Shown one piece after another: positions 1 to 34,717 of a stretch of 59,973 bases of DNA. Location of the stretch: IMG/VR virus record IMGVR_UViG_3300045988_079322; one strand, written 5' to 3'. A program made the translations under genes and the position numbers. Under the pieces are notes generated by a model, which did not search any database, was not told the origin of the DNA, and saw only the letters and a program-made list of their open reading frames with translations. This DNA comes from a virus. Position 1 is the stretch's first letter. Each line of letters opens with the position of its first letter.

Positions 1-335
1 AGTTAAAATACATTCCATGAAAATTTCTCCTTTCATTTTTAAAAAAGTACACTTTTTAACAGGAAAAATACTTTTTCTTCCTAGATAACAAAAAATTGGG
101 AAAAGGGTAAGAAACCCTTTTCCCAAAAGTGAGTATCTTACTCTTTTCAAATATACTTGAAAAAGAGTATAGATTGATTATATATGTTTGACCAAGTTCA
201 GTAAAGTGTACTTTTTCTCGGAAATTGTTTATGGCTTTCTAAAAGACTGGAGCGAAGATCGCTTCCATCCTCGACCTTCTATCTAGTAGTTTAGATTTGT
301 TTGAAACAATAGCTAGATAGAAGGAGGTAAATAAT

Positions 336-2102
336 TTGCCTAAATGTATTTTAGCTGAATAGGGTGGAAAAGGTGGAGGTTCTCTTTCTCTTATAAAAAT
401 TGAAGTAACCACTCCCCCTACTAAAACGAGCTATCTTGCTGGTGACACTTTTAATCCCGCGGGAATGGTAGTCACCGCATCTTACGGCATGGACGGCGTT
501 ATTGTAACAACAGCAGAAGTAACTGGGTATCAAGTTACTCCAAACCCTTTAACTGATGGGGTTACTAAAGTAACAATTACTTACTCTGAATTAGGAGAAA
601 CTTGTTAGACCACTCAAGACATTACTGTTATTCATAAACTTCTTAGTATTTAGGTTACTACTAACCCAACTAAGACAACTTATGAATATGGAGACACTCT
701 CCAAACAACAGGAATGGTAGTTACAGCAAGTTATTCTGATAGTACATCATCCGCGGTTACCGGGTATAGTTGCTCTCCAACGTCATTAACTGCGGTTGGC
801 ACCTAGAAAATTACTGTTTCTTACACAGAAAATGGAGTAACTCAGTCTGCTTCTTTCAGTGTTACTGTTGAAAGAAAATCGGTGCCGAAACCAACATGGA
901 AGAATAATCTTACCTATACTGGTAGTAGCCAATCAGTAAGTGGTGCTTCCTATTGGAATAACTTTAATACCACTTATATGACGATTGGCGGGACAACTTC
1001 CGCGACTAACGCTGGAACCTATACTGCTACTTTCACACTAAATAGTAATTATAGATGGGCTGATGGAACTACATCAAATCTTGATGTAAACTGGACTATC
1101 AATAAAGCTGCTGGGACTTTAACAGTAAGTCCAACTTCTGTAGCTCTTGATGGAGATAACTATAGTGCAGGCGTAAAAGTTACTATTACCCGTCCTGGAG
1201 ATGGAGCTATTAGTTATAGCCCAACTAGCGTTTCTGGCTTAACTTTATCTTTAAGTGGGAACGTTCTTACAATTAAAGGCGACGGTAGTACAGCTATTTC
1301 TTCTACAACTATTACTATCAAGGTTGCAGCAGGAACTAACTATACGGCTCCAAGTAATAAAACTGTTACAGTAACAGCTAGCTATTGGGAGTGGGGATCT
1401 GAAACTGCTGTTGGTGATGCTAAATGGTGGGCTGGATTAAAAACATGGGCCGCTAAGGCATCATCTGGAGAGCGACAAAATTGCGTAGGTAAGACTAAAA
1501 GAGTAAGTTTATCATCTTCTGTTTTAGGTGGTAATCAAGTATTAATGAGATGCGTTGGCGCAGATTAGGATGGAACAGGAACTTTAGCTTTTAATGCTGT
1601 CTCCGCTCTTCCTAATTCTACAGATTTTGGTAGCAATGCAGTATGGATTGGATCAACTGCTAGAGATCTATGTCAAGATTTCTATAACCGCTGTAGCGCG
1701 AAAGATTCTATTAAGACAGTAAAGAAGGGTACTTGTCCTAGTACAAATAGCTCTAGAAATGGTTCTGTAACCTATAATGATGAAACAGTATTCTTATTAT
1801 CCGAAAGAGAATACGGATTAGATTCTTACTCTCCTATCTCCACTTCAAACAGTACTACCTCTAAAGCAGAGTGTACTCAAGGTTATAATGCTGCGTATAG
1901 TTACTACATAAGCAACTCTAGAAGGGTTATGTACTTAGGAGATGCAAACGGTAATCCAACTAGCTCATATGCGTATCAATGGGAGAGGTCCCGTTACTAC
2001 TCCAACTCGGACTACGTTTGCTCTGTCGACACCGATGGATCTGCGAACCGCAACCGCTACGCCAACAGCGGCGGGCTCGCGCCGGCTTTCGTTATCGGAT
2101 AA
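336..2102 (+). CDS. DGR target protein, about 588 aa if read from TTG 336: N-terminal bacterial Ig-like (Big_2-type) repeats and a C-terminal variable region. About 6 in-frame TAG codons are read as sense. Start is uncertain; the ORF-track fragment is 882..1568.
   Basis: AGGAGG Shine-Dalgarno at 322-327, 8 nt before TTG 336. A single frame runs to TAA 2100-2102. Repeated motifs TKITVSYTENGVTQSASFSVTV and TKVTITYSELGET are typical of Ig-like domains. The VR lies in the last 40 codons. Confidence 0.55.
1987..2085 (+). repeat. DGR variable region (VR), 99 bp, inside the 3' end of the target gene
   Basis: Aligns base-for-base with 2710-2808. All of about 22 mismatches fall where the downstream copy has A. 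Ends with the GC-rich GGGCTCGCGCCGG, which resembles an IMH element. Confidence 0.85.
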
Positions 2103-2183
2103 CACAATAAAATAACAATTCGGGACAGTTAAGATTAAATTGTCCAACTAAAATTTTATATATTCAAGTGAGGGAGATTTTAA

Positions 2184-2522
2184 ATGTCTGTAAAAGTAAA
2201 AGATAGACACATATCAAAGCAAGATTGTCTTTATAAAGCACGCGACCTAATGGGATATATTTTAGTCTTAACTCGTCCTAGAGAATATGATAAGGATGGA
2301 AAACAAATTTGTAAGCCTGGACTGCTTGGAGAGGGTCAACCTCTTCAAGCGTTCGGGTACGATATAATTAAGTGCGGAAAGGGCTTATATGCTTGCTGTT
2401 ATGAGGCATGTAAGATAAACTTGAAAGACAAAGAAACCCTTGCAAAGAGAAATGACTATCATAATAAAGCACTAGAATATTGTGATAGTATATTTCGACA
2501 AATCGACCTATGTATTTATTAG
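2184..2522 (+). CDS. Small basic protein (112 aa) in the Avd (accessory variability determinant) position between target/VR and TR
   Basis: Intact ORF. Its size and synteny match the usual target-avd-TR-RT arrangement of a DGR. No sequence motif was recognised by eye. Confidence 0.4.
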   Translation: MSVKVKDRHISKQDCLYKARDLMGYILVLTRPREYDKDGKQICKPGLLGEGQPLQAFGYDIIKCGKGLYACCYEACKINLKDKETLAKRNDYHNKALEYCDSIFRQIDLCIY

Positions 2523-2709
2523 TATGCTCAGAACAGCAAAAAGAAAAGACGCTCTTTTGAACATCTAGCTAGATTGACAAAGAGAGTAAAAGAGTCAATC
2601 CAAGATAGAAAAAATAGAGATAAACTTATAACAGAGCATAGATATTCAGCTCCTAAGAGATATAGGAGAGGTCGATAATATTTTTCTACGGTTAAGTTCT
2701 GTATCTTTC

Positions 2710-2808
2710 GGTCCCGTAACTACAACAACTCGAACAACGTTTGCAATGTCAACAACGATGGATCTGCGAACAACAACAACTACAACAACAGCAACGGGCT
2801 CGCGCCGG
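2710..2808 (+). repeat. DGR template repeat (TR), adenine-rich (AAC/AAT repeats)
   Basis: 99-bp near-identical copy of the VR. Every TR/VR difference sits at a TR adenine, the hallmark of A-specific mutagenic retrohoming. The 3' end GGGCTCGCGCCGG is shared, then the sequences diverge (IMH versus IMH*-like). Confidence 0.85.
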
Positions 2809-3119
2809 ATTAGATGGAGCTATCATGTTGCGAGTTAAGCTGCGGAGCAGCGCAAACGAGCAACGCCTAAATAGTACCCCGGAGTATATTATTATCCATC
2901 TAATTAAGGTTTACTCTGGATTGCACTCACTTTATGTGGGGAAGAGATTGAGAGACCATTAAAGAGCTTTGCTCTACAACTATCGAATAATATACTATAG
3001 GTAGATCTGCCTTTTCATCTAAGGAGAACTTAACCATTTCACTGAAAAAGTGGATAAAGTAAGACTGTAGACGTGGAGCTCGAGTAGCTACCACTATAGC
3101 TACATGATAAGGAGAAAGT

Positions 3120-4337
3120 ATGTCTGAAATAAAACAAGATACTGCTTTCGAGCGTTTTTGTAGTTTTGACGCTATGTATGAGGCGTCTTATAAGGTATGT
3201 CGAAACGTTCGATGGAAAGATAGTACAATTAATTTTGAAGAGAATAGGATAGAAACAATTTTAAAAACAGAAGCTGACCTGCGAGCGTGTGAATACGAAC
3301 AGCTTGTGTTTAGTTGTTTTTCGATAATCGAACGAGGCAAACCAAGAGATATAAGAGCGTGTCATATCAACGACAGACTGGTACAAAATGCGTTATGTGA
3401 ACAAGTTTTGCTACCAGAATTAACTCCTAGATTTATCTATGATAATTGTGCAACCCTAAAAGGAAAGGGAATAGACTTCGCTCTGGAAAGAGTTAAGAAA
3501 CATCTCCAATAGGCTCATAAAGAGTATGGGTTAGGAAAAGATTTTTATGGATTAAGAATTGATATACAGAAATATTTTGATTCTATTGACCATGAATCTT
3601 TAAAGAAAGCAGCTAAACGGCTAATAAAAGATAAACTTGTTTATTAGTTATGTTGTTACTTGATAGATACATTTTCTTTTAAGCTAACAAAAGACACTTC
3701 GCCTATACCCGGTAAAATATATTACACAAGTAAGCGACACAAGTATGAAAGAGTTAATGTTACTCATTTCTAGCCTGGTCGTAAGTATTATGAATATGAA
3801 AGAAAGAGCCTGGGATTAGGAAGTCAAACGTCACAATTATTCGCATTGCTAGCATTGAACGAAATTGACCACTTCATAAAAGAAGAGTTACATATTAAGT
3901 ATTATGGTCGTTATATGGATGATTTATACTTGCTCCATAATGACAGTAAATACTTGGCCGAATGTGAGAAACAAATAGAAATTCGCTTAAATAAACAAGG
4001 ATTAAAGATGAATAAGAAGAAAACTACTATCACTAGAATTTCTCCTATTCACGCAGATGGCGAACGCCACGCTCCTTTTAAATATTTAAAGTGGAATTTT
4101 CATCTCACAGAAACTAATCATATAATACAACTTCCTTTCAAGAAAAAAGTAGCTCATCAGCGCAGAAAACTAAAGAAAATGTAGGCTTTATGGTTAGATA
4201 ATAAAATTTCAACTGAAGAAGTTTAGAAATCTTATTAGGGCTGGAGGGCGCATATTTCTAAAGGAACTTGCTTTTATATAATTCAGGACATGGACAATTA
4301 TTTTCGTTCATTATTCAAAGGAGTTGAAATAAAGTAA
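3120..4337 (+). CDS. DGR reverse transcriptase, about 405 aa, with 6 in-frame TAG read as sense
   Basis: RT motifs appear in order: FYGLRIDIQKYFDSIDHESL (motif A-like), GLGSQTSQLFALLALNEIDHF (motif B-like) and YGRYMDDLYLL (YxDD, motif C). The motifs continue uninterrupted across TAG codons at 3510, 3645 and 3771. TAA at 4335-4337. Confidence 0.85.
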
Positions 4338-4999
4338 TGTATATTCTATTAAATAGAGAGAATATAGTAGTTGATATTCTTTCAGAAGCACGTTACATTA
4401 AACTGCAATCCTCAAATGGTATTGTCGTTGCCTGCGAGGAAGAAGAGGGAACTGGGGTTATCGGCTCAGATAGTGATACTCATTACACTCTAGTCAAAGC
4501 CGATGTATTAAATCAACCTAATGCTGTTACAGTATTAGAGTTGGAAACAATTCCATCAAACGTCATTCCTAACTATTCAAAGTATAATCAAGAAGATGGT
4601 ACTTTCATCGCTGATTTAGATTAGGCAAAATATGATAAACAAGAGGAAAACAAGAAACTATTCGCAGAGTATCTTGCTACCCACCCGTTAACTTGGGTCG
4701 ATGGAAAAGAATATGGAATTACGTAGGAGGACCAATCTGAGATTAGCTTAAATCTCAATCAATTCTAGGTGGCTGTAGCTGCTGAAGTAGAAAATCCTAC
4801 GCTTGAGTGGCACGCTCGACACGAAGAGTGTGTACCATGGACTTTAGAGCAATTATCCGCTCTAAGTTTAGCTATTTCTAATGCGGTATATCCAAAATAC
4901 CACTTAATGCAAGAATATAAAACCTAGATATTTGGAGCTAATTCAATAGATGAATTAAAAGCTATTGAATTGAGTTATGAAGACACAGACAGCGAATAA
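4337..4999 (+). CDS. Tail-fibre-associated protein; the C-terminal part resembles the DUF4376/XkdW-like domain (tentative). About 220 aa with 4 in-frame TAG.
   Basis: ATG overlaps the RT stop (TAATG). A coherent reading frame passes through TAG codons at 4622, 4727, 4769 and 4925, ending at TAA 4997-4999. Confidence 0.4.
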
Positions 5000-5435
5000 A
5001 AATATAATTCTATTCGTAGTAGGAGGAACTCTATATTACAGTATAGAGTTCCTCTATAAAACTTTTATTAGCCTTGGAGTTTGTCATTGGTCTATGTTTT
5101 TGCTAGGTGGCTTATGCTTTCTATTAATTGGACTAATGAATGAGAATATTCTTTGGGAAGAATCTATCTTAACTCAAGGAGTAAAAGGATCTTTAATTAT
5201 AACTGCTTTAGAATTAATTTTTGGATTAGTTTTAAATATAAGACTAGGTTTAGGTATTTGGGATTATTCTAACATTCCACTTAACTTTATGGGGCAGATT
5301 TGCTTGCCCTTCTCTATTGCATGGTTCTTCTTGAGCCTTTTAGCAATAGTGTTAGATGATTACCTTAGATGGAAATGGTTTGGAGAAGAAAAACCGCATT
5401 ATCACTTATACAGTAGACCTCCTTGCGAGGAATAA
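4977..5435 (+). CDS. Small integral membrane protein, 152 aa, about 4 hydrophobic helices
   Basis: Intact ORF. Strongly hydrophobic segments, for example LFVVGGTLYYSIEFLY and LLGGLCFLLIGL. Lies immediately before the convergent bidirectional terminator. Confidence 0.45.
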   Translation: MKTQTANKNIILFVVGGTLYYSIEFLYKTFISLGVCHWSMFLLGGLCFLLIGLMNENILWEESILTQGVKGSLIITALELIFGLVLNIRLGLGIWDYSNIPLNFMGQICLPFSIAWFFLSLLAIVLDDYLRWKWFGEEKPHYHLYSRPPCEE

Positions 5436-5436
5436 A

Positions 5437-5480
5437 AAAAATAGGGAGAACCTTAATTAAAAGGTTCTCCCTATTTTTTT
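5437..5480. terminator. Bidirectional intrinsic terminator between the convergent plus and minus gene blocks
   Basis: Perfect hairpin AAAAATAGGGAGAACC-TTAATTAAAA-GGTTCTCCCTATTTTT with A/T runs on both sides. Confidence 0.6.
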
Positions 5481-6262
5481 TATTTTACATCAATAATAAC
5501 AATAGCAATATCGCTTTCTGGTTTATCTTTTGTGTAGAAAGTGATTCCAGATCCTACAGTTGCATCAGCATGATCAATTTTACTATATTCCTCTAAATTA
5601 GAAGTATAAGTAATGATAGGTGGCACATTTCCCGCTTTTCCGCAAGTTAAAGCAGTATTAGAGTATGTCTATGTATACATATCTCCGTTCAATACCCATG
5701 ATGCCGCGGCAAGAGTGGTTGTATAAGCTACAGATGTGCTACCAGTAATTTGGTTATCTGTTTCTGACTTGCTATATACATCCAAATTAGTTCTGGCTTG
5801 CGCGGCTGTCGTGCCTCCAGTTCCTCCAACCTAGATTGGAAGTGTACCAAATGTAGGTGCACCCGCAGTAATCGCGTATAAAGCACCAGCACCTTGTAAA
5901 CCAGCCACACCATTTTCCGCATTTCCGATTACTAAACTGCCGGCTGCAATTTCAATCATTTTTAATGCTTCTGTTCCATTTCCTACTAGCAAAGCATTAA
6001 CAGTTAATGTATCATGTCCAGTTCCACCCTACGCTACAGTAGCAGTCATATTTTTAAGAAAAATGTCGTCAATATCAATTTCAGTAACATTATTCTTTAA
6101 AACTTGAGCAGCATAGGCATTGACCTGTAGACGTCCGCCCTCTATATTACTTACATCAATAAATAAATTTCCTGTGTCCTCGCAGAAATAGGCGTATCCT
6201 TCATGAAGAGGTACATCATTAAGATCCTCTTCTGCGCCTTTAAAAATCTTAAATAAAGCCAT
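5480..6262 (-). CDS. Tail fibre or structural protein, about 260 aa, 3 in-frame TAG
   Basis: AAAGGAGGG Shine-Dalgarno followed by ATG 6260-6262. Translation continues through TAG at 6029, 5831 and 5669 in a single frame to TAA 5480-5482. Confidence 0.5.
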
Positions 6263-18717: not shown

Positions 18718-21700
18718 TTATTCTTTTCTTCTATTCGCCCATTGAGTAGCATCATCCGCCAAACTACGAATAGCATCTTGAATTTCATCAGAAGATGTCG
18801 CATTGGGGAATTCAACTCGTTCAATATTTATATTTGGCTAAACCACATTATCTGTCGGCGCAATCTAGGTATTAGTTCCCAATCTAGATGCCATAATACT
18901 AGAAATAGATAATGCATTTCCATCAAGAGTTTTCTCAATAGAGGCTATAAAACTAGGTCCAAAGGCTCTCATAGCAGAGACCGCCGCCAAGATATTTTTC
19001 GTATCCTCTTGATTTAAAACTAGCTCTTTTTCATGCAAGAAAGCTAATTTAGCATTATCAAATTCTCCGGTATATCCTCCAGTATCGAAACCACTTATCT
19101 AACTTTCTTTTAGCCATCCATAGGCAGAATTATTAGACTGCACATGGATTGGATATGGTCTACCCTTAGCTATATTTGTTATTCTAACCTTTTTACCTGG
19201 ACTACGTCTACCAGCAGGATCAGTACCATAAGAGTCATGATAATAAGTTCCGCCAATATAAGTAACTTCGTCTCCTACTTCGGGGATTCCATTACCCCCT
19301 CCGGTTCCACTGCTAGAAGACCCACTACCACTATTACCTGAGTTACCTTTATCAGTATCAGAAGATTGACTTGAATCAGAAGAAGGTAAGTCATCTTTAT
19401 CTATACTTCCTGCACTTTCTATTGTGCTACCAGCAGCTCTAGCGGCTTCTTCAAGCGCTCTTATATATTCTCTGACTGAATCGGCCATATCTAAATACTC
19501 TTGACTTAAATCTTGAATAGTGCTTATCTATTCTAACATCTAAGTAACGGCATTTGATCCAGCCTCAGAGCACAAATCAGTAGAAGTTGAAACATCGTCG
19601 ATATAATCTTTTAAATCATCGAGACTTGTTCCAGTCTAATCGGCTACTCCAGAAACAGTAGTTTGATAATCTTCCATCGCTCCGCTAGCTTCATCCATTG
19701 CATTAGATAAAAACTCTTCAAAGTTACCAGCATTAGCGGTCATATTGGCTAAGTCTTTCGCAAATACATTATCAAATAGGTCAATAAGTTTTGTATTACT
19801 TCCTACTATATCTTGAATCTACTCGTTATCTGATAGTAACAAATCAATAATGCTAGAGCCAGAGTTAGCTATAATATCTTGAATTTCTTGACTTGTAATT
19901 CCAGTTAGGTCACTTACCTCGTCTCCCGCAACAATAGCCATATCAATTAAAGCTTTATTGCCGGCTTCGGTCATATCCTAAATAGCGATCTATTTTTCGT
20001 TCTCTAGGTCCTTAACCTTCTGCGTATAATAAGAATAGATTTCTTGCGCGCGGGCAGATCTTTCTTCATCAGTCAAGGTCATATCAGAATAGATTTCTTT
20101 TATCTTATCTTGACATTCTTGCCAAGTAGAAATAATCTCTCCTGTAACATCCTCTACCTACTGCTTTGCTATATTATACCACTCATTCTCCGCATCAAGC
20201 AAATTCTATTCTGCGTCAGCTATCTGGCTCGCATCTGCGGTGTATTGATAATTCCAGTTACCTTGACTATCTCTCACTAGTCTAAGTTGATTTTTCGCAT
20301 TTTGAGCATCTTCAAGTGCCATCTAAGCCTAAAGAACATTATACTTAGCTTCGAGAATTTCTAAATCGTATTCAGATAAGGTATTGTTCTCTCTACGTAT
20401 ATCAATTTCCTCTTGTAGCTATTTTAACTAATCTTTCATCTTAGAGTTAGTAGCCTTATCAATATCCTGTTGTAGTTTATTATACCAAGAAGATACCTCA
20501 TACGCTTCATTTACTTTATCTAAATATCTATCCTCTTGCTCGATATAATGATCAAACTTGTCTTGTAGTAGATCTAATCCTACTCCGCCAGAAACAGCCT
20601 ATCCAAATTCATATACTGCTCTCTCAATAGCTTGAGTATACATCTCCTAGGCAGTTTCCATAGCGGCTTGCGCAGAACTTAACATAGCCTCTTGTGCTTC
20701 ATTATATTCTTCTAGTAGAGCATCTCTATTAGCTTTTAGACCATCATATGCAGGATCCGTTTCATCTCCGCCTAATGCGTCTAGTGCAGCTTGAGCTTCC
20801 AATAATTCTTGACGGATTCCATCGTACCATTGTTTATTTAGCTGCGCATTGGCGACCTGAGCCTTCATAGTTTCTTCGCTTACTTCCTGAAGCTACTCAA
20901 ATCCTTCCTCAGTCTTATATGTAACTCCCTAAAGAGCATATAGTTCTTTGATAAGTCCTAGAACGGATTCATTATGGTCAAGCTAATCAGTAAAAGCTGC
21001 AAATCTTTCTGACGCGGCATCTAATGCATCTGGTAGCATTTCTTCAAGACCTTCTACCCAATCAAGCAAAGCTTCCGCAGTAGAAATCATTTTACCTTGC
21101 AAGTCAGATAACTTGCTTACAATCTCATCAATATTAGTCGCATCTGTGGCATTAGCTAATTCTTCCTGATAACTTTTAAGGGCTTCTTCATAGCTCTTGA
21201 TGATTTCCTTATTCTCATTCATACTGTTTTCATCAATACGAGCGACTTCCATTCCATGAGTTAGTTCATCACCAAAAGATTCTGCTATTTGTCTTGTTAG
21301 CTCATTAACCGCATCTTTAGCATCTTTTATATCTATTGCAACTTCAAGTTTATATTCAATCTAATTTAATCTATTATCTGCAATATTTCTTTCTAGCTCT
21401 TCTTGCTCATCTTTTACATCTTGAATCTTGTCAAGAGTTTCTTCATATTGAGCTAAAGCGTCCTAACGAGCCTAGAATAATTCATCAGCAACTTCTTTTT
21501 GTAATTGCCAACTATCATATTCTGCCTATCTAGCCTCCTATTCATCTTTAGTAAGACTGCTAAACATTAATAAGAAAGCGTTGTAATCGGTTAAGAAGTT
21601 ATTATTATAATCATCAACAATAGATTGAAGAACGTCTTGATAACCTTCAATTTCTCCATTTTCATCAAAAGTAAGAGAATTGTTGAATAATCCTTGAAGG

Positions 21701-24700
21701 TCTGATCTATCTTTCTCAAGATAGGTCTCAGCCTCATCAAGCATCTTATTATAATTAGCTTGCTGTTTTTCTAACTCTTGAAGCTCTTTCTAATAAGCCT
21801 ATAATTTCTTCGCTCCATATGCTCTATCTATATTATTACCAATATCATCTAATAAATCATTCTAATTCTCAATCTCACGAGTTATTTCATGGTATCTATC
21901 TTCTATATCTTCAAGAGTTTTTTCATCTTCGGCATCATATTTTGTACCTTCGTTATCTCCGCCAGAATCTTTATTTCTAATATTGTCTGTTGCTATTCTA
22001 TTCGGATCTAATGCTCCATCAGGATCAAATGCAAATGGCTCCTAACCATAATCAAAAATACCATTCTATCCAGATCCCGTACCCTAAGAAGATAAATATG
22101 AACCAGCTTCTTTTAGAGCATTAGTAAAATTACCAATAGCATCTCCGCCCTCGCCGGAAATTTTTAATCCTAGAGTGGGAAGCTCAAAAGGAAGATCCGC
22201 TTTGCCAGCTAGCCAATCATCTATCTATAATTTTCCCCATGATTTTACATATGGAGTAAAACCTAAATCATATTCAAAATTAGAAATTAAATCTCCTAGT
22301 GCTGTTAGAACAGCCCCAGCCGCCTATGAAGTTGAGCTAATTGTATTAGCACTCTCGGACATAGTAGAATTAATAACGGCTCCAGCGATACTAGCATCAG
22401 TGGACATTGCTTGCATTAAAGCATCGGCGCTTGTATCTAGTCCATTTGCTAGCGTTATTCCCTAATCAAGAACACCCTAGAGAATCCTTTTATAAGATTC
22501 GTTATTAGTCTATTCTAGTCCTACGAGCTATTGTCCAATACTTGATACCATTGCCTAAAATTCTGTCGCAGTAGTATCGAAATTATTATCAATGGTAAAA
22601 TCTATCGCTCCAAAGCTATCAGCATAGTTTAATAAGTAATCGTAATTATCTACTAAACTATTTACAATTCCCATCATGTCTTGGGCATCGCTCACTTGTT
22701 TTTCCCAAGTATTTAAATTAGATATATCAGACATGGTTCTGGCATATTCTTCCTCAGAAATTGTAGTTTGATCTACTCCATCTTTGAGTTCCCAAACTCC
22801 GTCTGTATTTTTTGTAATATTCTAATTTAATTTAGACTAAGCCGTAATTAATGCTTTCGTGGCAGCGATTGTTCCCTCATAGTAATCATCCATATTGATG
22901 GTTCCAGATTTAAACTTTTTATTTAAATCTATCAGTCCATCCCCTATAGACCCGGTTGCAGCGACCAAAGTAGCTTCATATAAATCAGTTTCTTCTATAT
23001 TATCGTCAATTTCTTCGTTTAATCTATGAAAGCCTGCATTTATATTGCTTAATCTTTTATTAATCGTATCAAAATATTCTTGGGCAGATATTGCCCCCTC
23101 CTGATACGCTTTCGCATTATCACTAAGGGCCTATGTTCTCTCTTTAAACAATTCTACATCAGTTTCACTTGTAAACGTATAATCATTTATTGCATTTGAA
23201 TCACTGGCTCGCGATACTAATTCATCCCACATATTAATATAATTCTAGAGATAATCAGTATTTACCCCATATTTTTCTTTCATAGATTCTATTGTAGCAT
23301 CAAGAATTTGCTCTTCTTGTCGTTCAGAATCTAAAAATGTCTAAAGAGACTAATTTGTTAGTTTATACGCATCTCCAACTTTAACAATATACTAAGCATA
23401 TCTTTCATCTGCATTAATGAGTTCTTGAACTTGATCCATGGTTAGATAGCCTTCTTGATCCTTATATGACTATAAGGCAGATTCAAGAGCACTCTAACTA
23501 TTATTTAATTCTTCCAATATAGATTTTAAGTCGTCTATTCCCTTTACATTTATATTTATTTCATTAATTTTATAATTATCTAAAAATTCCTATAATTCTT
23601 CAACCGCATCAAAATTATCTATATTGACATCCATAAGGATTTCCCAATCCTCATTTGATAGAGAATCAAAATCAAAATCACTAAATTTACTTTCTACTTT
23701 TTCCTTTGCTTCATCTACTCTGCTATCTACAAAAGTTAAAAACTCATCTACGCTGACTCCAGCTAACATTAATTCATTTTTAATGGATTCTGTTATCAAA
23801 CCAGAGGCTGCACTAATATCACTACTAGCCAAAGTGCTATAAAGCTAAGTAGAAATCTATTTAACTGATTGGTTATCTAAAATTGGTTTTAATATAACCT
23901 CTTCATATTCACTTTGACTGCCATAAAGATTTTTACGAATAAGAGATAACTGCTCCTGCATTGAAGCTATCATTTCTGGATTATACTCAATAACCCCGTC
24001 AGTAACAGATTTAATATATGCAGCATAATCATCTTCTGCTTGCTATATAGCTTCAGAATTGTCAGTTACCCACTGTGCCGTAATCTATTCATTTTGAGTA
24101 ACCCAATCTTGATACTCTACTAAGTAATCACGATAGGCATCAGAATTTTTATCAAGGCCCTAAGTAATACTATTAAACCAAGTGTCTGCATCTACGTACT
24201 AATCTTTATAAGTATATCTATTCTATTCAAGTACAGATTGAGCATTTGGATCATTTAAATCCATGCTCTATTCTAACTCTTTAAACCAGTCCTAGTCTCC
24301 ATTGTATTCATTCCAACTTCTCCACTAGGTTAAATCTGGTCCTCCTGCCAAACTCTTAGTAGATTTATCATAATTCTCTTCGATAGTTTTTGCCTAGGCT
24401 TTTTGCGCTTCTTCTGTTAACTTCTCTTGTAACTCAACCTATCTCTACAAAGAAGATTCTGCCTATTTAAGTTTTTCTAATTCTTCTTGTTCGACTATAC
24501 TTAAAGAATCCTAATTATTTAATTCTTCTATTCTATCTTTCGTTGTCTATAATTCAGAATTTAAAGATTCTAATGCAGATTTCTAATCCTCATAAGCCTA
24601 GGTAGCACTAGATATTTTTTCTCTAGCCTCTTCTTCCGTAACAATAATGAGAGAAATAACATTAACAAGTAAGGTTACTCCCAAAGTGATTAACCCAATA

Positions 24701-27417
24701 AGTGGTAAAGCAGTTGAGATAGCCGCACCAACAGTAGTAATACCAGCAGCCGCAGTTTTAGCTGAAGCTCCAACTGTTAAATACGATATTGCAGTTAAAC
24801 TATTTTGTAATGCCTGCTTTTTAAACAAGGTAGAGATTGTTGGTAATAACATTCCAAAGTTAGTAAGAATAACTGTAAAATCTTCAACAGTAAACTCTCC
24901 CTCTTTCACAGAATTTGTAAAAGTAGAGAACATGGAATTAATACTTGTCATTCCCATTGTAACTTGCGATAAAGTGGTTCCTACTTTAACCAATGTCTCA
25001 GCCCAGTCTAAAGTAGCATATCTGTTATTCTTTAACCCCTCACTAATTTCTTTTGTTTTCTACTGTAATAATTCTAATCCCTATCTAAAAGCCTCAGCAC
25101 TAATTTCATTATTCTTAAAAGCTGCTACAAGACCACTTAGATCATTTTTAAATTTAACAGAACCATCACCTAAAGAAGTAATAACTCTATTTAATGCAGC
25201 AACGTCTGATTCTGCCCCTTTTAATGCTTCCTAAAACTACTAAGAGGTAGTAAGATATTCTATTATCTCCTAATTTGTTGCATCTTGAGCACCTTCAAAA
25301 AGATTTAGGCTTCTTACTAAATTAATAGTTTCTTGAGAGATTTCATTGGTTCCAGAACCAACTAATTTCTATACTTGCTAAAACTTAGAAAGACTTACGC
25401 TCGCCACTTTTAATTTGTCAATTAAACTCTAAAGGGCTTGCTAATTTGTCTTTGAACTATAGAGAATTTCTGTTTCTATGTCCTCATAAAAAGAAAATTT
25501 ATTTTCATCTTCTAACACAAGCGCCGATAGTAGATTATCCTTCCATTTTTTATTGGGAACTAAACGCTCAGACAAACTATTTGTATAAGCTGTAATAAGT
25601 TCATCTGATTTGCTAACCTACTACCCAATTAAATTAACCTATGTCTATAAAACCTTTACTCTATCTAAATCTTGTTGTAAAATACCAGCCTAGCGCTCAG
25701 ATAGTTGTGTGGCCGCAGCGGACGCTTCTCCTTCAAGCTAAACAATCTAAGCTTGAGTATTTACCATCTATCCCTAAATAGTATTATCAAGTGCGGATTT
25801 CGCGATAATATCAGCCATCTATGCGGCTTCAGTTCTCAAAGTTTGCGCTCTATCCTTTTCTCTCTATCCGATAATACCAAGATTAGAAGCAATATCTCTC
25901 ATTCCTTGCGCAATCTTATCACCAAAAGCCTTATTCATCAGTAAAGCAGTTGTTGCTAAAACGCCAGACATTCCGCCTAAACCATCAATAATATCAGCAG
26001 TTGTACTTAAAATAGGACTAAGAACATCATCTACCCCAATATAAAAATCAGGATTTATTAAACTATCATAAATATCTTCCGCGGATGCTCTTACTCTATC
26101 TCTTGCCGCCTCCCAAGATTCAGCATAAATATCTGCTTGTTCTTGTAGAGATCCTTCTGCTCCATAAGAACTCTCCAAATTTTCCTAGAAGAAATCCCAG
26201 TTATCCATAAGAGCAATAAGACGAGTATATTGACGTACTCCAGCTACAGTCTGTGCTAATGCAATCTATTGATCATTAGATAGAGTTTCCCATTTCTCTC
26301 CCATTTCATCTAATAAAGTATCCATAGTCTTGATTTCTCCATTAACGTCAAAGATGTTAATTCCAACTTTATCAAGAGCCTAAGAATATTTATTTAGAGT
26401 AGTTCCATCATCAAGTGTTTCTCCAAGATTTAAGCCCTGAATACGTGCAAATAATGTTCTAAATGCAGTACCTACAGTATTCGCAGATTCACGAGTTGTA
26501 GCAGTAACAGTAGCAAGCGCAGATGCGGCATACTCATAACTCAAACCTACCGTCTCTGCAACTGCGGCAAACTGCTAGATACCTTCTGAAATTTCATCAG
26601 AGCTTGATGCAGTATCTGCACCTAAGCGCACCATGACGTCTGCATAATACTCAAGACTTTTACTTCCATCATAGAAGTTATTCCATACCGCAGTTAACTA
26701 GTCAGATGCAGTCTAAGCGCTAACACCCGCGGCGTTTGCCATTTTTATAGTAGTTTCAGTTCTATCTAAAACTTCCTACTCAGTAAGGCCCTACTGATAG
26801 TAAATCAGAGCTGCGTCAGTATAATCTACTGTAGTTGTACTCAATGCCTTAGCTGCTTCGTTAGCCTACTTAGCAAAAACAGCCATATCCTCGGCAGAAT
26901 TTTCAGTAACTATACGAATGTTTGTCAGAGATTCATTTAAATCTTTTGCATAACCATAAGCTGTCTCTAAAGAGCCAATAAAACCCTATAAAGTGCTTGC
27001 TGTAATCTACCAACGAACCGTATTTTTCATTGTAATCCACAAATCAGACATTAACTTATTAGTTCTGATTAACGGAGTTTCCGCCGCCATAATAGCCTGA
27101 GAAAGATTTAAGAATGTTTCTTGCCCCTAAATTCCCAGTTTGCTTAGTTGATTATAATAATCTGTTAAAGTCTTTCCGCTTTTTACTAAACTATCATTAA
27201 AAGCAGTCAAATCTAACTTACCTGAATTTCCATTAGTAGCCATCTAAAGATTACGGCTCAATTCAAGGGCCGCCAAAGATGCCTACTGAAGTTCACTAGA
27301 AATAGATGGCTAATTGCCTAATTTCTATAAACTATTTATAACTTCATTAACAGAGGTTTTTAGCTGACTCGCGTCAGCGGTAAACCCAATCTAATAGTTT
27401 AATCTTTTATTAGCCAC
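18718..27417 (-). CDS. Tail tape measure protein, about 2,899 aa, dozens of in-frame TAG
   Basis: GGAGG Shine-Dalgarno then GTG 27415-27417. Seven ORF-track fragments (25864, 24598, 23590, 21538, 20983, 20647, 19099) share a single frame. TAG stops were verified at 20893, 20647 and 19099. TAA at 18718-18720. Ala/Glu/Leu-rich coiled-coil composition, and an N-terminal region typical of TP901-type tape measure proteins. Confidence 0.6.
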
Positions 27418-27527
27418 AGTCCTTTTCCTCCTTTATCTCTACGATAAAACAAATAAGGCTCTTGAGAATTATATCTTCTCAAGAGCCTTTTAATTCTCTA
27501 TCTAATTTGTAAATTTTATTAGATTTA

Positions 27528-28058
27528 TTAATCTTTTCCAACCACATCTTTAATTACTGATAGTGTTTCAAGATTTTCACCATTCTTAATCTTTTCTAGC
27601 ATATCAGTAATATATGTATCAAGACCAGAAGCATTTTTATTCATCATCTGAATAATGCCGGCCGCAGAACTATTATATCTTGAAATATCGCTTATAGTAT
27701 CCTTAACTAAATCCTCAATAAAAGATAGTTCCTCCACCGGAATAATATCACGAATTGCATCAATTACACCGTTTGTCTCAAGAGTGTCATAGGTTTTTGC
27801 GATATTTTCATGCACATCTTCTGGCTCAAAAGTAATTCCGCCATACCATCTGCATATAGCAATAGCAAAATAGGTCTCCACTCTAACTGGACTAAAACAG
27901 CCAGTTGCCTCATCTATTGATAAATCAGTGACAAACATAATAAGATTTGTTTTATCAGCAATAGGAAGATAATTAGCCACAGACAAAATCTTATCTGCTC
28001 CAACCTTTACTTCTGTATATTTAACTTTAGGCTCAAGCCCCAAATCTTTAAAAGTCAT
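27528..28058 (-). CDS. Tail assembly chaperone candidate, 176 aa, no TAG, immediately upstream of the tape measure gene
   Basis: Intact ORF. The position matches the G/GT chaperone slot. Confidence 0.45.
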   Translation of the reverse strand: MTFKDLGLEPKVKYTEVKVGADKILSVANYLPIADKTNLIMFVTDLSIDEATGCFSPVRVETYFAIAICRWYGGITFEPEDVHENIAKTYDTLETNGVIDAIRDIIPVEELSFIEDLVKDTISDISRYNSSAAGIIQMMNKNASGLDTYITDMLEKIKNGENLETLSVIKDVVGKD

Positions 28059-28121
28059 TGTAAAATCTCCTTTATCTCATTTATATTTTTATTATACTAG
28101 AAAAATTAACTATTGTCAAGT

Positions 28122-29538
28122 TTAATATGCGTATTTAGATAGTATATTATTATTTAAAGTTGCTGCAATAGTTAATTTATTTATAACTCCATTGACTATA
28201 TTACTACGGGTGATTGCATCTAATATGTTTGCTCCAGAATTGCCATACCACTTATTACCCAGAGCGCCTTCTCCACCAATAGAAACCACTTCATGAGCAC
28301 TATTTCTAACAATATCATCACAGATATTATTAATAATTCGCTAGATTGAAAATACTCTACCATTAACTATAATAAACTATCCTAAATGACCCTTCTATGA
28401 ACTAAACTCACTAGACTGAATCCACTAATTAAAGAAGGACGCTGCAACAGAAGCCCGTATATTATTAAACGATTCTTCAAAATCAGCTCCAGTATATCTA
28501 TGAGCAATCATATTATAAGCAAGATACTTCTCTGGCTAACCAGAAAAATATTCTCCAACATTCATACTTGAAGAAGCAGAAATTTTATTCTAAGACATTT
28601 TCTTATTTTGCCATCTTGCATTTACATTTGTCCCTATCTCTATATTAAAAGTCTGATTGCCCTTGGTTACTTGCAAACTAAAGGTATCATTATTAAATAT
28701 ATTTGTAGTACCTTTAGACTTAGAGACATTATTCTATCCTTTATCAACCCATCGCAATTTTCCACCAGATTGCGCGATTACCTTATCTAATATACTATCC
28801 GCGGTATTAACTCCTATTGATATACCCTCTGCAACTATCGCCTAACTAATCTAATTTCCAATAACCCTTCTAAATATATAAGCAATAGTATTAGCAAAAG
28901 AACGAGAGTTTACTGATCCCTATTCACTTAAACGAGTAACAGCCCTGTTTAAAGAATCTATTACATCTTTTGCGATATTTATATCTCCTTTGCCAACAGC
29001 CATAACATAACTTTGCTATGCCTAATCTATCTAAAAGCTAGTTCCTATTAGCTATCTTCCAATCTATGTTAAAGCATCAAGAACATTAACATTTATCATA
29101 TTCGCTTTCGTTAAAGCTGATATAAGTAACCTAAAGAAATCATTCACTCTCTATATTTCCGGTGTACCAGTTGATAACAAGTTATTAAAGCTTCCAACCT
29201 ATTGCAATATAGTATTATAGTTTTCAAAATCTACCTATCCACCAGCTAATTCAATACCCTCATTAATACCGGCGGCAATCTAATCAAGAGTAGAGTCTAA
29301 TAGGGTTCCTATCTCTAGATCACTTAGAATCTTTAATCCACTGGCTGCGGAAGGCGCTTTTAGCTGCATCTATTCTTGAATTGAGGAGATCTAAGCCTCA
29401 ATTCCCGCGGTCTATGCTTTATTTACTGCCTATTGATACTATGCGCTGAATAAGGTATTCGCTGATTCTACGTCGCCATATTCTCTCAAATGGCTACTGT
29501 GATATACAATATAGTTAATAGACCAACGCTAAACATAA
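28122..29538 (-). CDS. Late tail-module gene or genes. At least one TAG-containing CDS ends at TAA 28122-28124. Upper boundary and frame continuity unresolved.
   Basis: Protein-like translation (...IVRNSAHEVVSIGGEGALGNKWYGNSGANILDAITRSN...) in frame 0 ending at 28122. A candidate Shine-Dalgarno/ATG at 29536-29538 lies in a different frame. Confidence 0.25.
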
Positions 29539-29564
29539 TCATAAATATCAATATCCATAACTCC

Positions 29565-29600
29565 AATTACTCCTTATAAAAAGAAAAAGGGAGGACATTA
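29565..29600 (-). terminator. Intrinsic terminator (minus strand) downstream of the 464-aa major tail gene
   Basis: Hairpin AAGGGAGGAC-TTAATG-TCCTCCCTT followed by TTTTCTTTTT on the minus strand. Confidence 0.5.
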
Positions 29601-29615
29601 AGTCCTCCCTTTAGA

Positions 29616-31010
29616 TTAAATTCCGTCATCCTCGGTGACAGAGACTAACTTATTGCGGGTGCTAGTCTTAGCTTTTGCTGCGGCAGATGTAGCAAAGCTA
29701 AGTTTGTTATTAATGGTATAAGTCTTTTCAAAATCACCATTAATCTTATTAATCTTTGCGGTAATAGGAGTTGCCTGATCTTCGCTAGTAAGAATTACAA
29801 GCAATCCTTGAGCTAACTCTTCGCCGCTAACGGTTTGAGTCTTTGTATTACCTTCAATTCTTGGGTCTGTAGAGAAGTATCTCTCATAAGCTGGGTTTGT
29901 AGTTACCACATTATATTGGGTACTATCACTCTCTACTGGGATTTGCAGGCTGATCTGAGCAGCTTCTGCTATAGTATCGCCATAAGCCTCAGTGTCATAA
30001 GCCTTTCCTGTTACACTACCAGTAACATCAAGCTCTGCGGCTGTAGCACTATTAGATACGAAACTTACAGTCACATCAGCAGCTTCACTCTCATAAGTAC
30101 CTACATTCTCAGAGCATGGCTCACGAGTTTCCTCGGTTTCACCGCTTTCATCAGTGATTACTTGAATTGCAGCCAATACCTTATGGGTTTGGTCGAACTT
30201 GGTGTAATCAGGGAAAGCGTCCATTGTAAAGGTAAAGGTAGAAGGATCTCCGTTAGCTGCCATGCTGAATGTGAAGTTACTCTGAACTTTACAGTTAGGA
30301 ATAATAAATTCAGCAGGCATATCTACGCCATCGCTCTCACGACGGAATAGAGTTGAAGCCTCAAGATAATAGTTACCACCAAACTTATCAGCAGTAATTT
30401 CAATCATCTGTGCTCCACCGGTACGCTTTACATAGTAGTCAACTAAAACAATGGTTCCCGCAGGAAGTACGCCAGCATGAGAATAACAAGTTAAAGTTGT
30501 TTTGCCATCTTCTGTGTAACTTACAGAAACAGGAATACAAGGCTCGGCATTAACTTGACCATCATCGCCTAACACCATCACAAAGATGTCGGCAGAACGG
30601 TGATACATTTCATTATCATGGTCAGTAAATCCATTCCAGCAAGCCTTGTCTGGAACAATAATAGTATTGGCAGTCTCAACTTCAATCTGAGAAGTCTGGT
30701 GAACATAGATAGGAGCTTCTTTTGTTGCATCAAGTAGGCCAGCACCAGAAAGAATAGAGAAGCTTTCTGGAGAAAGTAGAGCATCTTCCATTGTAAAGGT
30801 TAGAGTACGCTCACCTTCCCAAGCAATCAATCTAGAATATCCACGTCCGCCCTGCGCATATACTGTTGTTGCAGCACCCTCAAGAGTAGAGGTTCTTAAA
30901 GTGTCGAAATATAAAACTGGTTCATTTTTGTAGAACTTACGATTACCAAGGGTTTGATAACTCTTCGCACGAAGCACTACATCGCAAATCTCACGAATAC
31001 CAAAACGCAT
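29616..31010 (-). CDS. Major tail protein candidate (tube or sheath-like), 464 aa, no in-frame TAG
   Basis: Intact ORF with AAGGAGG Shine-Dalgarno. Sits between the connector genes and the chaperone/tape-measure genes. Followed by a terminator. Confidence 0.5.
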   Translation of the reverse strand: MRFGIREICDVVLRAKSYQTLGNRKFYKNEPVLYFDTLRTSTLEGAATTVYAQGGRGYSRLIAWEGERTLTFTMEDALLSPESFSILSGAGLLDATKEAPIYVHQTSQIEVETANTIIVPDKACWNGFTDHDNEMYHRSADIFVMVLGDDGQVNAEPCIPVSVSYTEDGKTTLTCYSHAGVLPAGTIVLVDYYVKRTGGAQMIEITADKFGGNYYLEASTLFRRESDGVDMPAEFIIPNCKVQSNFTFSMAANGDPSTFTFTMDAFPDYTKFDQTHKVLAAIQVITDESGETEETREPCSENVGTYESEAADVTVSFVSNSATAAELDVTGSVTGKAYDTEAYGDTIAEAAQISLQIPVESDSTQYNVVTTNPAYERYFSTDPRIEGNTKTQTVSGEELAQGLLVILTSEDQATPITAKINKINGDFEKTYTINNKLSFATSAAAKAKTSTRNKLVSVTEDDGI

Positions 31011-31024
31011 GAGCTAATTCCTCC

Positions 31025-31426
31025 TTAATTTTTAGGATGTATATCTCGCATCCATGATTCAACTGGTTTATCCGGTTTGCCGCCTGCAAGACGAACCCGC
31101 AGATCAACATCCCATTCAATAAATGCATTATATCTTTCCATCAAGTCAAATATCTAAAACATATTGAGATTAAGGCAATCCTCCAAGCTCATTGTCTAAG
31201 ATCCAACTGTTAGGATAGATACATAACGTGTTAAAACACTTTCATTATTTCCCTTATTCTTTATTTCCGCTACTTTACGACGTCCCCGCATTAACTTCTC
31301 TGCTATTTCTTTTGCTCTATCATTCGCAGGATTATAGATAACATTATTACCTTGAAATATGCTATTTACACATAAGACCTCTTTTAATGTATCTTGGAAA
31401 ATATCAAAGTTATTATCATCTATCAA
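31025..31426 (-). CDS. Head-tail connector or tail completion protein candidate, about 133 aa, 2 TAG
   Basis: ORF fragment 31196..31426 reads through TAG to TAA 31025-31027, overlapping the Shine-Dalgarno of the next gene. Confidence 0.35.
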
Positions 31427-31766
31427 AATAGGTTGCTTTTCATTCTATTTTGTTAAAATAATAGAATTTCTCGTAAGTAGTGGTATATAGTCAGGAAATA
31501 ATAACGTAAGAAGCATGATAATTGCATCTTTCTTATCCTTATCCTAAGATTGTTCTAACACCTTCATCAATACTTGAAAATTAGTTAAGGATGATGAAAG
31601 AATTTCGTCCTATATTAATGATTCTTTGTCTAAACAAAGATATTGAACTGCCATAAAAAATTTTGTCTCGCCTATAAGAGCTATTTCTTTAATGGTGGGA
31701 ACATGAATAATAAGTTGTAATTCAGGAATGGGAATATCAATCCCAGCCATTAAAGCTAATCTATAA

Positions 31767-32303
31767 TCAGACAAGTGGATTTACCTTATCCTCATTACCA
31801 CGAATTGCAAGATAGGTAAGAGACAAACCGGCAAACTCTTCATCATAAATATACGGAACAGCGGATACAAATTCAAGTTCTCCTATCCCAGTTAAATGAG
31901 TTTTATCCAACATTGAATCTATCTCTCCGGCTATCCTATAAGGACGCAAATCATAATCTCCTAAATCCCAATTATCATAATGACATATAATATCTATTCC
32001 AAAGGTATTATCTCTATATTCAGGATTAGTAGAATTTCTAACCATCGTACCATAAATTAATCGCAAATATGATTTTTCTGGCCTATCTACTTTAATTTTA
32101 GGCACAGGAGAAATTTGCTATGTTTCAATCATTTCCTTTATCATATCTCCGGTAACCGCAGGTTTACTTTTCCAATCTCTAGTATTATAAGCTAATAACT
32201 TTAAAACATTCTAATTAGAAAGTATCCTCTCCATAATCAATGAAGCGTCTTTCTAAATTCCCAATAAACTAGATTTAGGATATTCATAGGTATTCTTTTT
32301 CAT
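31767..32303 (-). CDS. Head-tail connector protein candidate, about 178 aa, 3 TAG
   Basis: ATG 32301-32303 extends ORF fragment 31767..32105 through three TAG codons. TGA at 31767-31769. Confidence 0.4.
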
Positions 32304-32315
32304 TAATTTCACCCC

Positions 32316-33116
32316 TTAGAACAAAGACTCTACCACAATAACTTTTTCTAGCGTAATATTTTCTTTTTCCCATATTAGAGTGAATTGACCATGAGTAGAT
32401 TTATTCCATACTAAATCTACTGCTTTATTTCCATTCGGACATAAAGTTACAGGGAAATCTTTTTCTAGTATTGACCAAGTTCCATTAGGTTCTTCAACAG
32501 AATAAGTCTCTTTTATTAAGGGCTTAATGAAAGTTTCACCTAATATTCCACTTTCTGGAGTAGGATCAACAGGCTCAAAAACTAATCCATCTTTCATACT
32601 ATTCTCAATATCGTCTGTATCTCTATTGATATAGTCCTCTTCTGCATTGACTTCAATAACATTTCTCATGCTAATATCGTCTGGAGCCTAGACTTTCCAG
32701 CACCGTCCCGCAAATAGAAATTCTTTATATCTATCAAAAGCATGAATTGTTTTCTCATTTCTTGGCATGAGGATATTTAAACTTAAATTAGGTTTATCTA
32801 ATCTCTCTTGATTTTTCTGAATAGATTCTATCTAAGTTTCAACTGGCCCTCTAATTGCCGCCCATGTTTCACACCATTTTCCATCCTAATCTTTAAATTT
32901 AATCTTATATCTACAACGTCTTATTTCTCCTCTAAAGTAAGCATCCTCGGTTATTTCTTCTAAATAGATAATCCAATAAGTCCCAGTTCTTTTCCACTCA
33001 AAGACATCTCCCGGTTCATATTTTGCCATATGATCTATTGAAATTATCTTATCATCATAATCTTGTTTTACTTTATCGGGATTAATAAGCGCTCTATATA
33101 TAGGATAAATACCCAT
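32316..33116 (-). CDS. Head-tail connector protein candidate, about 266 aa, 3 TAG
   Basis: Fragments 32886..33116 and 32316..32669 lie in the same frame, joined through TAG codons at 32886, 32835 and 32670. TAA at 32316-32318. Confidence 0.4.
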
Positions 33117-33315
33117 TTCATTATCAATAGCATCTAAAGATGCATCTAATACCTAAGATGATTTTTGTACCATCTAAACTGAACAACTTTGATAAGAATA
33201 CTATAACGCTTTTTGAAGAGTGCGCCATTTATCCTTTATCATTCTATCTTCTTGCCGAACGCCGCCTTGCCACTCGAGTCTTTTCCTCATTAATTCAAGA
33301 TTCGTCATCTTTTAT

Positions 33316-33518: not shown

Positions 33519-33599
33519 TTGGTATTAACTTCCACAACTAATTGATTAGTCTCTTTAAATCTTGCTCTCTAGTATCTAATGGAAAATCAATTTCATATT

Positions 33600-34087: not shown

Positions 34088-34154
34088 TTCTTCAAAAAGG
34101 GTAGGATCGCCCTAAATTGGATACTTATTATCCATGGCTATAACCTCCCTTATC

Positions 34155-34712: not shown

Positions 34713-34717
34713 TAAAT

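Follow-up and report, generated by a model that had tools for sequence, protein, structure and literature searches.

The 59,973-nucleotide stretch of viral DNA analysed here (IMG/VR virus record IMGVR_UViG_3300045988_079322, hereafter the window) carries between positions 336 and 4337 a diversity-generating retroelement (DGR), consisting of a target gene that ends in a variable repeat (VR), an accessory gene, a template repeat (TR) and a reverse transcriptase (RT) gene, in this order. We consider it very likely that this DGR is complete, currently active and of the BPP-1 type. A complete DGR had been predicted here from the sequence of the window alone, and the clade motifs of the RT, the restriction of TR-VR differences to adenines, the lectin fold predicted for the target, a structured RNA and the hypervariation of the VR all agree with that prediction.

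Evidence for activity comes from a comparison of near-identical genomes, an approach used earlier in PMC8008677. Relatives were gathered via the accessory protein, an identical neighbouring protein and a DNA pattern, and ten contigs from ten other samples are 98.5–99.3% identical to the window over 12 kb (most about 99.2%). The 11 conspecific genomes have 11 different VRs. At the VR positions that face an adenine in the TR (A-sites), 34 of the 36 columns are polymorphic, compared with 1/66 at the other VR sites, 1/102 in the TR, 3/1218 in the RT gene and 19/1770 in the rest of the target gene, while about 1% of the flanking DNA is polymorphic. A-site-specific polymorphism of the VR, which the original prediction had proposed to look for, is hence found between samples. 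The set amounts to a clean natural experiment, with near-identical genomes from different people each having their own VR next to an invariant template.

The repeat pair itself is the largest repeat family of the first 6 kb of the window, a direct repeat (1987–2088 and 2710–2811) with an offset of 723. An ungapped comparison of the two 102-nt copies gives 18 mismatches, at each of which the downstream copy has an A and the upstream copy a C, G or T (7, 7 and 4, respectively). As 36 of the 102 positions of the downstream copy are A's, chance alone would place all 18 mismatches on adenines with a hypergeometric probability of 2e-10. The 18th mismatch (2086 C, 2809 A) is a C/A difference fixed in every lineage examined, so that homology ends there and the true VR and TR measure 99 nt with 17 mismatches, all 17 at TR adenines (18/18 if the boundary base is included). 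Realignment and the fixed boundary base thus bear out the predicted 99-bp spans and the predicted adenine bias, whereas the mismatch count had been put too high, at about 22. All mismatches lie at codon positions 1 and 2 of the target frame, which ends at the TAA at 2100–2102. The VR was also correctly placed within the last 40 codons of the target gene and the TR correctly described as AAC-rich; with the AAC and AAT codons that it has in the VR frame (Table 1), the TR allows about 1e20 protein variants. It is located in the 441 nt that separate the accessory gene from the RT gene, and no second VR for it was found on either strand of the 60-kb window.

The same pattern holds across lineages. 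Among the first 35 related loci (L001–L035) plus the window, 29 loci have a paired VR and TR, the pairing being made by matching at non-A positions only, and 557 of their 561 TR-VR differences are located at TR adenines. Where a TR has one of the rare non-A changes, its own VR has the same change, the signature of transfer from TR to VR. Three loci, L010 (4529–4615), L021 (about 3801–3880) and L040 (about 4008–4112), were considered as cases of non-adenine mutagenesis and rejected, as their differences are indels in the TR or VR: the L010 TR lacks 15 nt that its VR keeps, the L021 VR lacks 21 nt found in its TR, and the L040 VR has one extra codon. Between the window and the L001 lineage, the TR differs at only 1/102 positions, by a C/G change in the GC-rich end, though the surrounding DNA is 86–88% identical. 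Both repeats end in the GC-rich sequence CGGGCTCGCGCCGG, directly after which they diverge in all lineages, the VR continuing with CTTTCG and the TR with ATTAGA. Based on its position and on being a GC-rich shared end, CGGGCTCGCGCCGG is a candidate for an element of the initiation of mutagenic homing (IMH) type. In other lineages, a C/G change inside CGGGCTCGCGCCGG is found in the VR as well as in its cognate TR, and owing to a one-base difference of relatives in the GC-rich end, a scan of IMG/VR with the exact A-to-N pattern of the TR retrieved nothing.

Components of the cassette

The target gene starts with a TTG codon behind a strong ribosome-binding site (RBS) and has five in-frame TAG codons (360, 606, 651, 804 and 1566). 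As predicted, it codes for Ig-like repeats, two of which match the Pfam domain Big_3 (3e-12); further beta-rich repeats are present and the C-terminus matches DUF6273 (6e-11). The N-terminus (PKCILAEQGG, with a CIL..Q motif) is kept in relatives, in which the TAG at 360 is replaced by the glutamine codons CAA or CAG; public gene calls begin the target at the ATG at 465 and thereby cut the first Ig domain. Structure prediction, which had been suggested as a check for a C-type-lectin fold at the target C-terminus, points to such a fold for the domain that displays the VR. Its structure matches (scores in brackets) comprise a domain of the Thomasclavelia ramosa IgA protease (15.5), the C-terminal domain of Legionella Lcl (8.1), the Bdellovibrio fibre tip Bd2740 (7.0), the DGR variable protein TvpA (2y3c; 6.7), the FGE-like proteins OvoA (6.7) and EgtB-IV (5.8) and dozens of canonical C-type lectin domains (5.4–6.4). 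Pfam DUF6273 is hereby linked to the C-type-lectin fold and to DGR targets. Tail-fibre-like genes are found on both sides of the cassette, in keeping with the tail-fibre module to which it had been assigned.

The RT gene codes for a protein matching RVT_1 of Pfam (2e-16) and phrog_1423 (6e-83) and has six in-frame TAG codons (3510, 3645, 3771, 4182, 4224 and 4236). Its best sequence match in the PDB is 8ub7, a 328-aa reverse transcriptase (E value 3.5e-14), which we take to be the BPP-1 enzyme bRT, compared with 1e-7 for a group II intron RT. The segment LGSQTSQLFAL aligns with IGSLTSQLFAN of 8ub7, and RYMDD is common to both. With RTs from gut phages that carry DGRs, the protein has 34–35% identity over 96–98% of its length, and the alignment to its homologs is full-length and runs across every TAG. 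An RT with a YMDD motif in canonical order was hence rightly recognized, the order being that of mtd-avd-TR-brt in BPP-1.

More equivocal is the identity of the accessory protein, for which only an Avd-sized open reading frame (ORF) had been claimed. The ORF exists, and a four-helix bundle and a profile match to an annotated Avd speak for the assignment, but database searches with the sequence do not. The protein has no match in Pfam, NCBIfam or PHROGs, and neither its homologs nor the most distant members of its family have one in Pfam. A profile search against PDB sequences and a tblastn search against deposited phages returned nothing, and hhalign detected no similarity between its profile and the BPP-1 protein bAvd. 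A word-indexed search places 87 clusters in the family, whereas an exhaustive search of 1.8 billion proteins with a hidden Markov model (HMM) retrieved 26 representatives only. The AlphaFold model of a family member 91% identical to the accessory protein (P0001; pLDDT, the predicted local distance difference test, 89.8) shows four long helices, of which helices 1 and 2 are separated by an inserted beta-hairpin, and ends in a basic disordered C-terminus; the inserted hairpin contains a loop, PGLLGEGQPLQAFG, that is conserved in the family. The top four Foldseek matches of the model are chains of 2rld, a member of the S23 ribosomal/IVP family that includes Avd (E values 0.06–0.11, probability 1.0, template-modelling scores of 0.64–0.68 on the target). 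Three distant members of the family, P0154–P0156 (137–148 aa), lack the hairpin; for one of them, P0155, BLASTP gives an alignment of 134 residues (4e-5) to the protein annotated as Avd in Roseburia phage Shimadzu, and a profile including the distant members aligns with the same Avd over 129 columns (hhalign, E value 1e-4, probability 58%). Position, predicted fold and this remote profile link suggest that the accessory protein is Avd-like, although its membership of the Avd family is unproven. If correctly assigned, it represents a divergent Avd-like family outside every Pfam model, which HMM-based searches for Avd would miss.

The BPP-1 DGR RNA is known to include a functional spacer part. 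In the window, a structured RNA begins at the 3′ end of the TR, in which a long stem encloses a three-part hairpin. RNAalifold analysis of nine lineages yields 37 pairs, 9 of which have compensatory double changes (for example GCTGC/GCAGC, GTGCC/GGCAC and GCGTT/AACGC), and among the 11 conspecific genomes none of the 308 sites of the gap between TR and RT (2812–3119) is polymorphic. No Rfam family matches the structure. It fits a spacer part of the DGR RNA, for which it is a candidate by analogy, and as a covarying RNA at the TR 3′ end it may be compared with the BPP-1 spacer RNA.

By analogy with the BPP-1 model, the cassette would be transcribed as a rightward operon, with the TR and the structured RNA that follows it serving as the template. 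The RT, aided by the Avd-like protein, would copy the TR into cDNA and misincorporate nucleotides opposite template adenines, and the cDNA, directed by the GC-rich 3′ end that the two repeats share, would take the place of the VR within the final 38 target codons. In this way the 15 AAC or AAT codons and a few other A-containing codons would be randomised, which gives the roughly 1e20 possible proteins mentioned above. As the randomised residues are expected on the surface of the domain with a C-type-lectin fold in a tail-associated Ig-domain adhesin, the binding specificity of the phage would change.

Several further features surround the cassette (Table 1). The TAA stop codon of the RT gene overlaps the ATG of the next gene (4335–4339), which suggests that the RT is translationally coupled with the 220-aa, tail-associated product of that gene. 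The assembly collection has 1158 blocks in which the membrane protein encoded next is indexed with its exact sequence, and contigs of 50–200 kb are present in 859 of these; going by this identical protein the phage seems very common in human-gut metagenomes. The perfect inverted repeat that follows lies between the rightward DGR block and a convergent block of tail genes and is probably a bidirectional terminator.

Table 1. Positions of the cassette, its parts and neighbouring features in the window
Feature	Position	Strand	Remarks
Invertible segment	42–216		175 bp, non-coding; bounded by AAAAAGT-AC-ACTTTTT (42–57) and an inverted partner ending at 216
Sigma-70-like promoter site	205 to 177	minus in the window	TTTACT-17-TATAAT; conserved
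Strong intrinsic terminator hairpin (predicted)	126 to 96	minus in the window	about 50 nt after the promoter-like site
DGR target gene	336–2102	+	588 aa; TTG start at 336 behind RBS GAAGGAGG (321–328)
Ligand-binding domain of the target C-terminus	1380–2099	+	predicted C-type-lectin fold (Pfam DUF6273); displays the VR
VR	1987–2085	+	within the final ~38 target codons; differs from the TR at 17 positions
GC-rich VR 3′ end	2072–2085	+	CGGGCTCGCGCCGG; common to the TR, with divergence directly after; IMH-like position
Accessory gene	2184–2678	+	164 aa; one in-frame TAG (2520); predicted basic four-helix bundle; Avd-like by position and predicted fold
TR	2710–2808	+	non-coding; 14 AAC and 1 AAT codons in the VR frame
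Structured RNA	2804–2910	+	from the TR 3′ end; long stem GGATTAGATGGA/TCCATCTAATT around a three-part hairpin
DGR RT gene	3120–4337	+	405 aa; motifs GSQTSQ (GxxxSQ) and RYMDD
Downstream gene	4337–4999	+	220 aa; weak tail-fibre/DUF4376 matches; ATG overlaps the RT stop codon
Membrane protein gene	4977–5435	+	152 aa; TAG-free; PF06541, phrog_20274
Inverted repeat	5431–5484		perfect, 24 bp (100% complementary); 6-nt loop; A/T runs on both sides

Amber codons and alternative explanations

With the standard code the cassette region breaks into short ORFs, and it is only when TAG is taken as a sense codon that the three genes appear. ORFs of this kind span positions 243–45,000 and reach 2905 aa in an ORF with 104 in-frame TAG codons (18718–27432, minus strand), which has neighbours of 1324 aa (33 TAG) and 944 aa (27 TAG). 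TAG aligns with glutamine in homologs of the accessory protein, in homologs of the target (ADQDG) and at the target N-terminus, and judged by these alignments it is read as glutamine in all three DGR genes. In-frame TAG codons had been noted in the RT and target genes, and the accessory gene can be added to these. Their number varies across related lineages, from 1 to 11 in RT genes, 1 to 6 in accessory genes and 0 to 8 in targets.

As all three genes carry in-frame TAG codons read as glutamine, the cassette can be made only while amber suppression operates. In the window, a minus-strand structural block (5.5–44 kb) is TAG-rich and a plus-strand block (45564–57437), which codes for non-structural proteins such as an AbrB-like regulator, is largely TAG-free; from 45.5 kb the G+C content of the plus-strand block is 0.39–0.46, compared with about 0.34. 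TAG-free non-structural genes next to TAG-rich structural genes form the pattern of a published lysis-timing model (cited in bioRxiv 10.1101/2023.08.07.552389). Late translation of the cassette, as put forward in the original prediction, would follow from this model. Some genes within the structural block are themselves TAG-free (34155–36517 and 27528–28076, minus strand), for example a 352-codon ORF at 34753–35811 (phrog_4088).

It is a considerable possibility, though one we hold to be short of even, that the TAG codons of the DGR genes have no timing function and that TAG simply builds up in all genes whose translation takes place when a suppressor of phage or host origin is already there. 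TAG density is lower in the DGR genes (1 in 164, 6 in 405 and 5 in 588 codons for the accessory, RT and target genes) than in structural genes (104 in 2905 and 25 in 484), the number and position of the TAG codons differ between lineages, and no suppressor tRNA(CUA) was found in the 60-kb window (of a genome of about 147 kb) or around the DGR in 25 related loci. A timing function is favoured, however, by the division between the TAG-free non-structural block (45.5–57 kb) and the TAG-rich structural block, which is as the lysis-timing model describes, and by the RT, which keeps at least one TAG in every lineage.

If, on the other hand, the TAG codons acted as true stops, so that all three proteins of the cassette were truncated, the cassette would be a relic that once diversified its target and is now inactive. 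The splitting of all three genes under the standard code and the failure to find a suppressor tRNA in the window speak for such a relic. We nevertheless consider a relic most improbable, as near-identical genomes all differ in the VR while the TR and RT are nearly invariant, which requires recent activity, and as TAG positions align with glutamine, homology runs on across every TAG and essential structural genes hold up to 104 TAG codons each. An origin of the RT from a different kind of retroelement (retron, group II intron or defence RT), with the nearby repeat as an unrelated duplication, can practically be dismissed, since the matches to the NCBIfam models for group II intron RT, Drt3a, Drt2 and retron RT all lie far below the curated cut-offs, the best PDB match is the presumed bRT structure 8ub7, the GxxxSQ motif is present, the adenine-only pattern extends over 561 differences, and an Rfam scan of positions 1–6000 gave only sub-threshold chance hits on hairpins and no intron or retron RNA family.

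Some observations weigh against a complete and active DGR of the BPP-1 type. The diversification that is shown is one between samples, not one inside a single population. In the accessory protein, sequence similarity to bAvd or to Pfam PF05635 is not detectable, an extra beta-hairpin is present and the size exceeds that of a typical Avd, and no suppressor tRNA was found in the window or in the 25 related loci. A conserved hairpin downstream of the VR was not found in seven lineages, the window and the L001 lineage having a local hairpin at about 2126–2149; a hairpin or cruciform after the VR is present in BPP-1 and in a subset of DGRs and is not universal. Finally, the only sigma-70-like promoter upstream of the target points away from it in the window, the segment on which it lies being flipped, and this genome may for that reason express the cassette poorly.

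An invertible segment upstream of the target

The segment in question is non-coding and located directly upstream of the target gene (42–216). It is reversed relative to the ten conspecific contigs, to which it is 100% identical when flipped and with which both flanks align in forward direction, and it is likewise reversed relative to 26 relatives; the window hence carries the rare orientation. Each of the two bounding sites is a 7-2-7 palindrome. Almost every lineage has the site motif unchanged, even at a DNA identity of only about 70%, and a role as a general promoter motif was rejected because the 60 kb contain the core motif at no more than these two sites. Within the segment, the promoter-like site is followed by a predicted terminator, and the putative 87-nt transcript (172 to 86, minus strand) folds with z = -6.2; no other copies of the promoter and hairpin module were found in the window. 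In the common orientation the promoter-like site aims at the DGR target, and in the window it aims away from it.

On its other side the segment is adjoined by a lineage-variable gene that is read leftward (positions 1–18 of the window, with the minus-strand start codon at 18; 3126–3827 in L001 and 1401–2042 in L037). The version of this gene in the L001 lineage matches a PHROG tail-fibre family. Its product starts with M.CIL.GQ, the same short N-terminal motif as that of the DGR target, and this common motif suggests that the two may be alternative proteins with one shared docking end. In relatives, a TAG-recoded serine recombinase of about 207 aa (YGYARVSS) is encoded in conserved synteny about 1.6 kb from the segment, just beyond the part covered by the window (about 1802–2428, minus strand, in L001; 1–457 in L037), and in L026 it is found directly beside the segment. 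It matches Resolvase (1e-30) and the DNA invertase family phrog_125 (2e-53) and is a candidate for the cognate invertase of the sites at 42–216. Public gene calls shorten this recombinase to 158 aa.

A census of junctions over all loci yielded 86 and 76 junctions of the common type, and flipped junctions only in the window and in L062, a contig of a different lineage at whose end the segment is followed by the left flank in reverse complement. Neither IMG/VR, where the search pattern is unable to match the L062 lineage, nor the metagenome collection yielded any more contigs with the flip, compared with 50 contigs in the common orientation. The ends of contigs, including near-complete ones of about 147 kb, fall in or at the segment much more frequently than chance predicts; this applies to position 1 of the window, position 1 of L046, and L049, L050, L051, L062, L077, L081 and L095. 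In the window as in L046, exactly 55 nt precede the first base that is specific to one orientation, presumably as a result of a de Bruijn branch at k = 55. Together, the contig ends at the segment and the 55-nt starts suggest that both orientations are mixed within samples.

We tentatively hypothesize that the DGR cassette is phase-variable, a possibility we regard as rather less likely than not to hold, and that a Hin-like invertase flips the putative promoter and terminator segment so that transcription runs either rightward into the DGR operon or leftward into the second fibre-like gene. Transcription would have to pass the predicted terminator, which sits between the promoter-like site and either gene. 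If the hypothesis is true, three layers would act at one receptor-binding locus, namely DNA inversion, DGR mutagenesis and amber recoding, with inversion determining which fibre is made and whether hypermutation runs, the DGR determining the fine specificity, and recoding the time of translation. Control of the cassette by the switch would constitute a new mode of regulating targeted hypermutation and phage host range. As it stands, the inversion switch is the one unusual extra beside an otherwise known kind of system.

Comparison with known systems

The gene order of the cassette is identical to that of BPP-1 (mtd-avd-TR-brt), and the VR is likewise located at the 3′ end of a receptor-binding gene. 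Provided that 8ub7 is bRT, the BPP-1 enzyme is also the best solved match of the RT, with the IGxxxSQ region and YMDD in common. Adenine-only mutagenesis, display of the VR on a C-type-lectin fold and a GC-rich 3′ end shared by VR and TR are alike in both systems. In contrast to BPP-1, the accessory protein described here is a 164-aa protein with a beta-hairpin insert and without detectable sequence similarity to bAvd, the target combines Big_3 domains with a DUF6273-type lectin-fold domain and does not have the Mtd architecture, no conserved hairpin follows the VR, the genes have in-frame TAG codons, and the host of the cassette is a gut phage of about 147 kb.

Closer in sequence are the DGRs of cultured phages of gut Firmicutes. 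The RT is 34% identical over 96% of its length to that of Roseburia phage Shimadzu and about 28% identical to those of the Faecalibacterium phages Toutatis, Brigit and Lelie. In Shimadzu, a tail fibre with a DUF6273 C-terminus, Avd and RT are encoded in the same order, and its Avd gives an end-to-end profile alignment with the accessory protein described here. These four phages are 45–60 kb in size and their RT matches are single uninterrupted stretches, and we assume that these phages use the standard code. Unlike in the Shimadzu and Faecalibacterium phages, the accessory protein of the window has the inserted beta-hairpin with its conserved loop. At the DNA level, megablast of positions 1–6000 and 28000–40000 found no match to deposited phages.

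DGRs with amber codons have been described in other phages. Infant-gut persister phages carry a DGR RT with several in-frame TAG codons beside a recoded tail target with a changing VR (bioRxiv 10.1101/2023.08.07.552389), and amber codons are present in seven DGR RT genes of Zeta crAss-like phages (PMC12386605). The combination of an amber-recoded DGR and a recoded tail target is therefore already reported (2023, 2025), and both groups resemble the window in having an RT with several TAG codons next to a recoded target with a VR that changes over time or differs between genomes. However, the cassettes that Zeta crAss-like phages carry mostly lack an Avd gene (PMC12386605), whereas an accessory gene is present here. 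The DGR itself is routine and, as other amber-recoded phages of the gut were already known from publications to have one, our findings are a confirmation and not a discovery in this respect. As to the identity of the phage, its conspecific contigs are about 147 kb long, and the structural protein encoded at 29616–31031 (PHROG 'virion structural protein') resembles those of 130–160-kb siphoviruses of Enterococcus, Lactococcus and Bacillus and that of phAss-1; a crAss-like origin was rejected on these matches. In phAss-1, a distant relative, TAG is read as glutamine with three suppressor tRNAs, and a DGR is not mentioned (PMC10607447).

The invertible segment, lastly, may be set beside the DNA-inversion switches run by serine invertases, such as Gin with the G segment of Mu, Cin with the C segment of P1 and Hin with hix in Salmonella. 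In Mu and P1, the invertible segments carry alternative fibre coding sequence. As in these switches, a small serine recombinase is encoded beside tail-fibre genes, the sites are palindromic and inverted, and both orientations occur. In contrast to Mu and P1, the segment described here is a non-coding stretch of 175 bp with a promoter-like site and a predicted terminator, located between two divergent fibre-like genes, one of which is the target of a DGR.

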